Positions 18,001 to 21,000 of a stretch of 31,848 nt of DNA are shown in pieces. The DNA comes from Anaerohalosphaeraceae bacterium (GTDB lineage Bacteria > Planctomycetota > Phycisphaerae > Sedimentisphaerales > Anaerohalosphaeraceae): positions 1 to 31,848 of the forward strand of contig JBNRMN010000074.1 of the NCBI GenBank assembly GCA_050309605.1, read 5' to 3'. The position numbers are program-made. The first letter of the stretch is position 1. Each line of letters opens with the position of its first letter.

Positions 18001-21000
18001 GGTTCCGGTTCGACCGGCGGTTCAGTTGTTGGCGCCGGCTGCGGCGGCTCAGCAACAGGCTGCGGCGGCTGGTCGATCTCAATCGGCGGCGATTCAACGG
18101 TCGGCTCGGCAGGTGCCTCGGCGGATGCCGCGGCGGCAGGCTCTGTATCGCTCTGTGCGGCGGCTTTCTCTTCTTCAGTCGGTTCGGGCGCTTTCTTTTT
18201 CTTTCGTTTGACGCGAACCTTTTTCAGATCGACGGGCGCAGCCTTCTCGACCGCCGTGGTGTGTTCGCCTTCGCTGAACCACTCACGGATCGTCGCCGCA
18301 AGGCCCACCGAGATCACCGCCATGTGGTTTTTGATATCTTCCAGACCTTCGGCCTGGCATTTTTCCACAATGGCCTGACTCTTGACGCCAAGCTCTTTGG
18401 CCAATAAGTAAACACGTGTCGATTTAGCCAAATTCGTCTCTCCGTTAAATCCGTTACGCCGTACAAAAGACGTCTATTTGCGTTTCTTCTTCTTCTTCTT
18501 TTCCTGTCTGAGCAGGGCCTGTGCCTGGGTCTGGACGTTTTCGGCGGCGGCTTTTTTGGATGCCTCGGCTGCGGCGGCAATAATCTTCTCGGCCTGCTCG
18601 GTCGGTACATCCAACTCCTCAACCAGAGGAGCGGCACCGACTTCCTCAAGATCCAGAACCGAGATGATCCCCAGTGCCAGCAGCTTATCAATGAAACTGT
18701 CGTCGATGCCTTCGACGTCCTTCAGCGCCTCGGCCATCCGCTCAACTTCTTTGTTGTATTCATCCGGCGTCAGGATGTCAATGTCCCAGCCGGTCAGCCG
18801 GGCGGCCAATCGTACATTTTGCCCATGCTTGCCGATCGCCAGGGACAATTGGTCTTCGGTAACGACCACCGTCGCTCGTCCCAGCTCAAAACAAATCGCA
18901 ATCTCGCTGACTTTGGCCGGGGCCAGCGCGTTGGCGATCAGATTGTGGGATGAATCGCTCCATTTGACAATATCAATCTTTTCGCCGCCGAGTTCATCCA
19001 CAATATTGCGGATTCGACTGCCCCGCACCCCGACGCACGCGCCGACCGGGTCCACCTTGTCGTCGAGGGTGTCCACGGCGATTTTGGTTCGATACCCCGC
19101 TTCACGTGCCAGCGACTTGATCTCAATGATTCCCTCGGCCACTTCAGGTACTTCCAACTCAAAAAGCCGACGAATAAAGTCCGGATGCGTTCGCGACAGG
19201 ATGATCTTGACCTGATTGGACAAATCCCGCACGTCCAGAATCAGGCACCGAATCCGTTCATTGGGATGGTGTGTTTCGCCGGTAATCTGCTCTGATTTTG
19301 GCAAAATCGCCTCGACCCGATTGGTCACGTTGATCACCAGTACCCCGCCTTCATAACGAGCGACGATACCGTTGATGATGTCGCCTTTGCGCTGGGCGTA
19401 TTCCGCGTAAATACTGTCGCGTTCATCAGCCTTGATTTTTTGAATCATCACCTGTTTGGCGGTTTGAGCCGGAATCCGCCCCAATTGACGAATGTCGATT
19501 TGCACATCATCCTTGTAGGCGGTGATCTGTCCGGTGCTGCGGTCAATGTGCACTACGATATCGCCCTCGGCGCCGTGCAGCAGGCCGAAATGCTTCCGCG
19601 CCGCCGAGATCATCGCCGCCTCAAGATCCTGAAATATGGACTCGCGGTCGATGTTCTTGTCCCGTGCGATGTTGTCAACGATTCGTATTAATTCCTGATT
19701 CATTTTGTCGTTTTCCTTCTCAGAAAATAAAAAAGTGGAAACCTTCAGGTTACCACTTTACACCCGTGCAGAACGCTGTCGAGCCTCGGTCAAGACGACC
19801 CGCGACCGATTCAGGTTGTCCCGTCAATCGGTCATCGTGCCCTCCGCGAAAAAAAATCCTGCATTTCGCACAGTCCCTGAAGAGTTTCGCTTATCATCAC
19901 AAAGTCGGCCAAGCGTTTGGCACGCTCCCGGCAAGCATACTGTAACGCTATGCCTATGCACGACTTATTGTTCCTGCACATAACATCTTAACACCTTTCG
20001 AACAGACTAACATACCCACAATAACCCAACATTATAATCTAAGCATCCTCTTTGTCAAGGCTTATAACGATGCCCAAAAAGAAAAATAAAGAAACGGTTT
20101 CTCTTCAAATCGCAGTATTCCGGCGTGCGTCAATCCCGCACCGAAGGATTGAATTCGGCATACACCGACGTTATAGTAGAGAAAACCATACAGGAAAATC
20201 AAGATGAAACAGACAAAAAAAGAGGTCGTTTTACTTGCGGCTGCATTTCTATGTCTCTTGGCAGGCGCCTTGTTAAACCCCTGGCTGCTCAAACCGCTGA
20301 TACGTCTGTCCGACGGCCGCGTGTCGCCGTTGCGCGTGATCGTCCTGCTGATGTTTGATGTAGGTGCAATCGCGGCCGGATTGTTTTTGATCAAATACCG
20401 TAGAAAAACGGTCATTTCGTCCAAAAAAGCGGTTTTTTGCTTGCTTTCGCTGCTGTTGGCATTGCTTTTCACGGAAGGGGTGCTTCAGGTGTTGACGCGG
20501 CTGTCCCCGCCCATCGCCCGACAGCTTTCCGGTACGGCCATTACGCTCCACATTTCGGATGACCTTTTAGGGCAGCGCCCCAATCCTACTCATCCCGATC
20601 ATGATGCCCGTGGATTTCGCAATCGGACCGCTTTGACAGAGGCGGATATTGTCGCGCTCGGCGACTCGCAGACCTATGGAATGGGGGTCAAACGACATCA
20701 GGCCTGGCCGCAGCAGCTTAATCGCATTTCAGACTATACCGTGTACAGTATGTCGTTTGGTGGGTACGGCTGCGTGGAAGGGTTGGCTTTGCTGGAGGAT
20801 GCCGCCCGATTAAACCCGAAGCTTGTCGTCTTTGCTCTGTTTACCGGAAACGATTTGGTGGATGCCTTTAATGCGGTGTACAATAAAAACTTGTTCCCGG
20901 AATTCAAGTCCGCCGAGTCGGTTCAAACGGCGATTGAGCAGATTGAAAATACCTCTCCGCTTATGGAACAGGTCCGCCAGATCACGTGGCGAATGTGGCA

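Follow-up and report, generated by a model that had tools for sequence, protein, structure and literature searches.

How IF2 is matched to need, beyond feedback by NusA and control at the promoter, is to our knowledge little understood. For the nusA-infB-rbfA operon of this Anaerohalosphaeraceae genome, an earlier note had read the leader as a translation-coupled attenuator with two short upstream reading frames (uORFs) and a terminator. The questions are which elements the leader holds, how widely they are conserved, and what signal the leader might read.

The operon and the survey of its leaders

The window, which is the whole 31,848-nt stretch of DNA analyzed, carries the operon and its leader on the minus strand. 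The operon consists of nusA (18474-19703; Pfam NusA_N and KH_5), infB, encoding IF2 (15675-18431; Pfam IF-2, IF2_N and GTP_EFTU), and rbfA (15095-15589; Pfam RBFA), and downstream of rbfA on the same strand are an unannotated ORF, hisG and a YebC-family gene. The first gene of the operon is not rimP: no RimP_N domain was detected in the genome, which is 99.7% complete, by a search whose control was positive in 10/14. There is no tRNA gene in the window, unlike in the E. coli leader, and rho is present in the genome. A sigma-70-type promoter matching 12 of 12 consensus positions was found at 20031-20058 (-35 box at 20058-20053, -10 box at 20036-20031, 16-nt spacer), which gives a leader length of about 320 nt, compared with the figure of some 300 nt proposed before, and a leader start just outside the interval then assigned. 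Promoter-like boxes could also be seen by eye upstream of uORF1 in relatives. The fold of the whole leader barely beats shuffled sequences (z -1.8). Rfam gave no gathering-level match at the leader, as had been reported, and no rimP model was among the six matches with E up to 10.

The named near relatives are Phycisphaerae, several of them carrying the label Sedimentisphaerales or Anaerohalosphaeraceae, and the order was taken from these neighbors. Conservation was surveyed in 401 genomes of the order, 381 of which had a NusA match. We fetched 188 upstream regions, 38 from the first search, 120 of the 150 best matches listed and 30 more for distant families; two were too short, leaving 186 nusA loci in eight families (f1 to f8, the window belonging to f1). 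A terminator was found at 181 of the 186. The junction of uORF1 with the GTG described below was scored as an anchor, using no downstream information, and was accepted at 160 of the 186 loci, the 26 failures being distributed over f2 (9 of 22 loci), f8 (5 of 7), f7 (7), f1 (3) and f5 (2). ATG, GTG or TTG was permitted in the anchor, and GTG occupied it in 157 of the 160. The stop position was aberrant at seven loci, of which three were mis-anchored and have 44, 40 and 40 open codons when counted from the proper GTG; six such outliers were omitted from later analyses. Anti-SD energies were computed with the genome's own 16S tail. Comparison of these loci indicates that the leader is real and that it is conserved across the order far above chance.

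Three overlapping reading frames

Comparison of the loci shows this order of elements: promoter, uORF1, an overlapping GTG-started uORF2, an SD-led minigene and the terminator. The antiterminator strand sits within uORF2, and a helix, here called the zipper helix, surrounds the minigene. The parts named in the earlier note (uORF1, a hexamer, a second SD with a minigene, and the terminator) are all present in the window on the minus strand. The hexamer, which had been placed between two uORFs, lies instead inside a third ORF that starts with GTG and links both.

An SD at 19993-19998 (mean anti-SD energy -6.7 kcal/mol in 62 genera) precedes uORF1, a frame of 10 codons at 19954-19986 that ends in Ser-Arg-Ala-stop, the stop lying shortly after the start codon of uORF2. 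At 144 of the 160 anchored loci this frame, opened by an ATG, extends as far as the GTG, and at 149 of the 160 the end of its stop is 8, 11, 14 or 17 nt beyond the GTG. Within uORF1 the bases that vary least are the GTG itself, which spans codons 9-10, and a stretch rich in purines some 10 nt before it. This stretch holds a predicted intragenic SD for uORF2 within codons 4-5 (19972-19975; mean -5.5 kcal/mol, compared with -3.2 at other GTGs), and the junction as a whole has the geometry of termination-reinitiation with an intragenic SD. Overlapping genes coupled in this way have been described (Huber et al., 2019; PMC6728339); relative to the gene pairs treated in that work, the uORFs here look non-coding and would position ribosomes on a transcription switch instead of coupling the synthesis of two proteins. 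A genome-wide search found no second uORF1/GTG motif beyond that of the leader, and the reversed control pattern also gave one match.

The Ser-Arg-Ala end of the uORF1 peptide claimed before holds in the window and at codons 8-10 of 30 of the 59 f1 loci; among the 58 f7 loci it does not rank with the six commonest triplets. GGA stands at codon 5 in 53 of 75 genera, AGG in nine and GGC in none, while GGC makes up 50% of glycine codons genome-wide; codon 9 is NGT (Arg, Ser, Cys or Gly) in 74 of the 75, a regularity partly built into the anchor. Nucleotide constraints, those of the SD and GTG of the overlapping ORF, account for the apparent conservation of the peptide; a sensor peptide does not.

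uORF2 (19824-19961) starts with GTG in the +1 frame of uORF1, runs for 45 codons and has its stop in common with the minigene. Among the 144 loci possessing a minigene, its frame is stop-free from the GTG to the minigene in 139, compared with 36 and 27 for the other two frames and 32.9 expected from dinucleotide shuffles; with one locus per genus the counts are 65 of 69 for this frame and 16 for each of the others. The open stretch measures 36-58 codons in 61 of 62 genera. It is in frame with the minigene at 111 of the 144 loci, and its stop ends 0-15 nt beyond the minigene start at 136, including 13 one-base and 8 four-base start/stop overlaps. Within genera, 182 synonymous and 391 non-synonymous changes were counted, with no codon position favored; the antiterminator occurs in each of the three phases of the frame (30/21/11), and the product has no match in Pfam. 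These comparisons give no sign of selection on the uORF2 peptide, which appears to drift near-neutrally, suggesting that the frame serves the passage of ribosomes. The GTG lies 75-79 nt from the antiterminator in 92 of 138 loci, and in the window the leader ORFs tile 163 nt gap-free.

The minigene (Met-Thr-Asp-stop, 19824-19835) is in frame with the end of uORF2, is present at 144 of the 160 anchored loci, and follows the strongest SD of the leader (19840-19845; mean -9.9 kcal/mol). The length of 2-3 codons given for it earlier describes f1, where it has 2-4 codons, but not f7 and f5, in which it was mostly counted as a bare ATG-stop (54/55 f7 and 17/19 f5 loci). Some f7 loci have an additional in-frame ATG ahead of it. 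In naked RNA a hairpin at 19804-19833 is predicted to sequester the minigene codons, and its conservation is modest (it beats shuffles in 8/14 f1 and 21/37 f7 genera). In 67 of 138 loci the minigene ATG follows the antiterminator at a distance of 46-49 nt. A ribosome queue (disome) was considered as the cause of a 47-nt spacing, and was rejected as a misfit to loci with spacings of about 90 or 120 nt.

Terminator, antiterminator and their distribution

The intrinsic terminator and its T-run lie at 19729-19759, about 26 nt from nusA. The hairpin has a G-rich 5' arm and a C-rich 3' arm and a predicted energy of -10.1 kcal/mol, and it is absent from the output of a simple terminator scan. It corresponds to the rimP-leader (Naville and Gautheret, 2010; PMC2965389), described in the account of that family as a short premature terminator 4-130 nt from the first gene, before the nusA-infB operon, with the same kinds of arms and a T-run, probably controlled by NusA, and in its general form with no larger conserved element and no antiterminator. 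The type of terminator, its arms, its T-run and its place directly upstream of nusA-infB are shared, and dependence on NusA may be. The leader studied here differs in having an antiterminator, a zipper helix and three ORFs, and in lacking both rimP and the canonical motif: the outer stem in the window has two G and two C and does not match GGGc(...)gCCC exactly, and the three-G form occurs in f2 and in other Phycisphaerae-like loci. Sequestration of the nusA SD by the terminator was rejected because that SD lies at least 10 nt beyond the T-run.

The predicted antiterminator strand is a 13-nt segment at 19876-19888 that holds the hexamer (19881-19876). The hexamer is complementary to the terminator loop (target 19749-19743), as had been noted, and the full strand, 12-13 nt rather than 6, pairs with the loop and inner 3' arm at -16.0 kcal/mol, compared with the -10.1 of the hairpin. 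The hexamer and the loop complement had been called invariant, and both come close to this within f1 (51/59 and 52/59 loci) but are nearly missing from f7 (2/58 and 1/58) and absent from f5 (0/20 for each). In f3 and f5-f8 the antiterminator pairs instead with the 5' arm of the terminator. In that register 93% of cells are paired (12 positions in 50 genera, one not scored), and three variable positions change among pairing-compatible bases only and are never broken. In the loop register of f1, 4 of 105 cells are broken (7 core positions in 15 genera, two not scored), and there are three both-side changes, all at one position. Controls with permuted partners gave small margins (0.93 versus 0.91 and 0.79 versus 0.74) because of the strong conservation of the antiterminator motif, and kin are not independent. 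The stronger argument for the pairing is that its register differs from family to family. The best antiterminator duplex beats shuffles in 38/38 f7 and 6/6 f5 genera and in only 9/14 of f1. Consensus folds of the f1 and f7 alignments contain little besides the antiterminator pairing, which is absent from the f5 consensus.

The predicted zipper helix (5' strand 19861-19873, 3' strand 19764-19776), seen in folds of the nascent transcript, continues the antiterminator inward and brackets the minigene, and it beats shuffles in 37/37 f7, 10/13 f1 and 5/6 f5 genera. With this helix and the open frame of uORF2 both conserved, the earlier view that conservation is confined to the uORF, minigene, hexamer and terminator has to be given up. 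An RNA-polymerase pause at the GTG motif was also considered and rejected by inspection, its spacing not fitting the pause consensus.

Competition between the two structures was explored with a thermodynamic folding model, in which transcripts cut before the last bases of the terminator were compared with full-length ones and ribosome-sized blocks were imposed. For truncated nascent RNA the probability of the antiterminator was 0.99 in the window and on average 0.60 in f1, 0.66 in f5 and 0.89 in f7. For full-length naked RNA the probability of the terminator was 0.82 in f1, 0.87 in f5 and 0.64 in f7, so that the terminator dominates at full length and read-through would depend on kinetic trapping. 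The model thus lends support to read-through as the state of an untranslated leader. Blocking the antiterminator strand raised the terminator probability to 0.92-1.00, as the imposed constraint would by itself require. Little changed when the block sat at the uORF1 stop or the GTG, and a block at the minigene moved the terminator probability from 0.82 to 0.78 in f1 and from 0.64 to 0.60 in f7, with no shift toward the terminator.

Outside the order, 15 loci with NusA identities of 58-69% were compared, and 14 of them have the terminator. An SD-led minigene of 2-3 codons lies 45-104 nt upstream of it in 13 of 14 Phycisphaerae-like loci, with 0.6 expected. Among 27 more distant loci the terminator pattern occurs in only one, and among 25 phylum-wide matches to the pattern before nusA a minigene was found in six (0.7 expected). 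In 11 of the Phycisphaerae-like loci a distance of 55-94 nt separates the end of an upstream gene from the minigene; in one of them (L060) the translation of this gene has the Walker A and signature motifs of an ABC-transporter ATPase. The last codons of the upstream gene pair with the 5' side of the terminator at -18.6 to -24.7 kcal/mol in 6 of the 11, and two loci (L070 and L083) have matching changes in this pairing. The pairing beats synonymous recodings (0.06 or less) in only 4 of the 11, and own pairs average -17.5, compared with -15.8 for crossed pairs. These observations are suggestive only of an arrangement in which, in other Phycisphaerae, the tail of an upstream ABC-ATPase gene carries the antiterminator in place of uORF2.

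Scanning metagenomes for the terminator motif gave 120 loci; of 46 downstream ORFs picked by hand, 43 were RimP or NusA. The idea that a minigene precedes the rimP/nusA terminator throughout bacteria was rejected, with one found in 44 loci against 1.4 expected, and antiterminator-like pairing in these 44 loci from other bacteria was at chance (23/44). A -10-like box could often be seen by eye about 30-40 nt before the terminator in these loci, and their leader looks short. The terminator is thus a widespread element of ancient origin, the minigene was added at the level of Phycisphaerae, and the uORF1/uORF2 relay is specific to the order.

Candidate mechanisms and known attenuators

It is very probable that the leader is a terminator/antiterminator switch influenced by ribosomes, whatever its polarity. 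The translation-coupled attenuator of nusA-infB proposed earlier is in that sense upheld by the two-register complementarity and the conserved translation signals, although its anatomy was incomplete and the loop pairing it relied on is specific to one family. We lean, by a modest degree, toward a ribosome-mediated attenuator that reads the efficiency of ribosome starts and not amino-acid supply, and in which efficient initiation would stop transcription; we infer both the polarity and the signal. In modelled, untranslated nascent RNA the antiterminator would seize the terminator before its hairpin is complete, allowing read-through, and a ribosome on the antiterminator strand would force termination. 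A ribosome might start uORF1, terminate, re-initiate at the GTG and cross the antiterminator, and then end or re-initiate on the minigene, or a new ribosome might load there, so that the zipper would be broken and the local terminator would win. The minigene ribosome would act both by breaking the zipper and by holding the two strands sterically apart, and since its block brought no shift toward the terminator in the folding model, this step is an assumption. An elongating ribosome would cover the antiterminator strand only briefly, which counts against the mechanism. Four sequencing runs turned up when RNA evidence was sought, all of them contigs and three of them probably from DNA, and they carry no information on transcript ends.

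Up to three initiations would have to fit into the time that polymerase takes over about 230 nt, and efficient initiation would therefore shut the operon. Poor initiation, caused by low IF2, few mature 30S subunits, cold or initiation inhibitors, would open it, and NusA, IF2 and RbfA would rise, adding IF2/RbfA feedback to the NusA feedback proposed for the terminator family. The identity of the regulated genes (IF2, RbfA) makes the supply of IF2 or 30S subunits a natural input, and no result singles out IF2 in particular as the factor sensed. Direct feedback of IF2 or mature 30S on its own operon is accordingly put forward only tentatively, as a possibility somewhat short of an even chance: a graded-start relay (SD-ATG, coupled GTG, strong start-stop) would have been grafted onto a pan-bacterial NusA terminator, with an ABC-ATPase tail serving as the switch strand in other Phycisphaerae.

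The same parts could work with the opposite polarity, which we regard as unlikely, if the antiterminator of naked RNA were tied to the minigene SD and were freed for read-through by a ribosome that uORF2 had brought to the minigene and that lingered there through slow subunit joining, release or recycling. Pairing of the antiterminator with the minigene SD beats shuffles in 28/37 f7 and 5/6 f5 genera, and the strand's usual distance from the minigene ATG puts it outside the footprint of a ribosome there. Against this, naked nascent RNA already antiterminates in the model, and the pairing has an ensemble probability no higher than 0.13 in any of the families and is at chance in f1 (7/14), for which reason a protector helix was rejected as a general feature. 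Less likely again is control of the terminator by NusA alone, with the ORFs tiling the leader against Rho and decay or timing polymerase pausing. The presence of rho and the gap-free tiling would suit such a role, NusA feedback is documented for the E. coli operon (PMC6511841), and such feedback is proposed for the terminator family (PMC2965389). NusA control by itself would leave unexplained the two-register antiterminator within uORF2, the zipper helix, the all-but-invariant GTG and a start-stop minigene with the strongest SD, and in the 44 loci from other bacteria, where the leader looks short, minigene and antiterminator are at chance levels.

Two further readings assign a role to the peptides. 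That uORF1 is a nascent-peptide or stalling sensor of antibiotics or of elongation or release stress, with the long frame entered by +1 frameshifting or after stalling, is very doubtful. Conservation does extend to its length and to a loose M-x-x-x-G-x-x-(S/N)-(R/S)-A pattern, and uORF sensors of this kind are known for resistance genes; yet the conserved codons are fixed at the nucleotide level, with no GGC at codon 5 and NGT at codon 9 in all but one genus (though the anchor itself selected GTG), an SD stands at start-codon spacing before the GTG, inspection of the sequence turned up no slippery re-pairing site, and a block at the uORF1 stop leaves the modelled switch unchanged. The long, consistently open frame of uORF2 could in principle mark a small protein gene in its own right, an idea that is largely refuted by near-neutral substitutions, an RNA motif read in three phases and the lack of a Pfam match, and to which we give almost no weight.

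If the polarity favored here holds, the input of this attenuator would be the rate of initiation or re-initiation, with no metabolite or stall involved, and the leader would lend itself to reporting IF2 activity, the maturation of 30S subunits and the action of initiation inhibitors. It is a compact, mutable device that makes exact predictions. The uORF1 case shows that what looks like a conserved uORF "peptide" can merely reflect a start site that overlaps it, and the minigenes show that start-stop frames can be selected across a bacterial class.

In the trpL, hisL and pyrL attenuators of amino-acid and pyrimidine operons, translation of a leader ORF passes over the strand whose pairing rivals an intrinsic terminator. 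The leader studied here is similar in that its ORFs are selected for translation, that uORF2 overlaps the switching strand and that terminator and antiterminator are mutually exclusive, with conserved pairing. It differs in lacking a conserved peptide, in having a re-initiation junction and a start-stop among its three coupled ORFs, in controlling genes of the initiation machinery, and in a long-range antiterminator pairing of about 130 nt. A run of regulatory codons for one amino acid, as looked for in trp/his/leu-type leaders, was found neither in the uORF translations nor in the codon tallies. No published account of these leader ORFs or of the antiterminator was found, including for Phycisphaerae nusA leaders, in a search that covered mainly the literature outside subscription; what appears new here is the three-ORF relay with its antiterminator, the rimP/nusA-leader type of terminator being already known.

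IF3 is known to control translation of its own gene, infC, through an AUU start, a suboptimal codon at which the activity of the factor is read. Its auto-repression is also mentioned in an account of the E. coli metY-rimP-nusA-infB operon, where NusA feedback is described as acting via the leader terminators t1 and t2 and the operon genes as cold-induced (PMC6511841). The leader in that account carries an initiator tRNA gene, and no uORF relay figures in its description of the leader. Compared with infC, control here would be exerted through transcriptional attenuation by way of upstream starts, and for IF2.

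Variant forms of the uORFs and minigene in related nusA leaders

Several nusA upstream loci of relatives carried altered versions of the short reading frames found in the window's leader. In family f3, the GTG-started uORF2 of loci L018 and L024 extends to 82 codons with its frame still open, and lies in frame with a three-codon minigene. The family f42 loci from more distant Planctomycetota (L398, L400, L404 and L405) encode SD-led minigenes of three to four codons, with the nusA terminator 63-69 nt downstream.

In L014 the uORF1 ATG is shifted one base out of frame relative to the SD/GTG motif, while uORF2 remains open; this offset may reflect natural variation or a mistake in the assembly. 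The uORF1/GTG relay, comprising uORF1 with the intragenic SD and GTG start of uORF2, was not found in the family f8 loci L114, L117, L130, L140 and L143, which keep the terminator and show a CTTC-like motif upstream of it. The leaders of these five loci could be a reduced form or a different one.

Upstream gene tails and terminator placement

In six Phycisphaerae-like loci outside the window's order (L058, L060, L063, L065, L070 and L083), an ABC-ATPase-like gene lies upstream of nusA. Complementarity exists between its final ~20 codons and the 5' side of the nusA terminator, and in two of these loci the two segments differ in matching ways. The coding sequence would possibly double as an antiterminator.

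At L034 and L175, ~270 nt separate the terminator from nusA, and an apparent short ORF was seen there by eye. A rimP-leader-like terminator pattern also occurs ~20 nt 5' of a GST-fold gene in the metagenome loci L302, L336 and L382, of which the scan covered L302 only.

Other features of the window

The genes rpsO and pnp (22520-25071) are neighbours of the nusA operon encoded on the other strand (plus), whereas in E. coli they lie downstream of it (PMC6511841). Pfam and gene calls placed an ORF, hisG and a YebC/TACO1 gene after rbfA on the same strand (12638-15076, minus); the ORF (14381-15076, minus) had no Pfam match. At 27409-29090 (minus), a gene for a peptidase S24 protein precedes one for an IMS-family polymerase, and the pair is umuDC-like. 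The Rfam model Acido-Lenti-1 RNA matched positions 28-72 (minus) above the gathering score.
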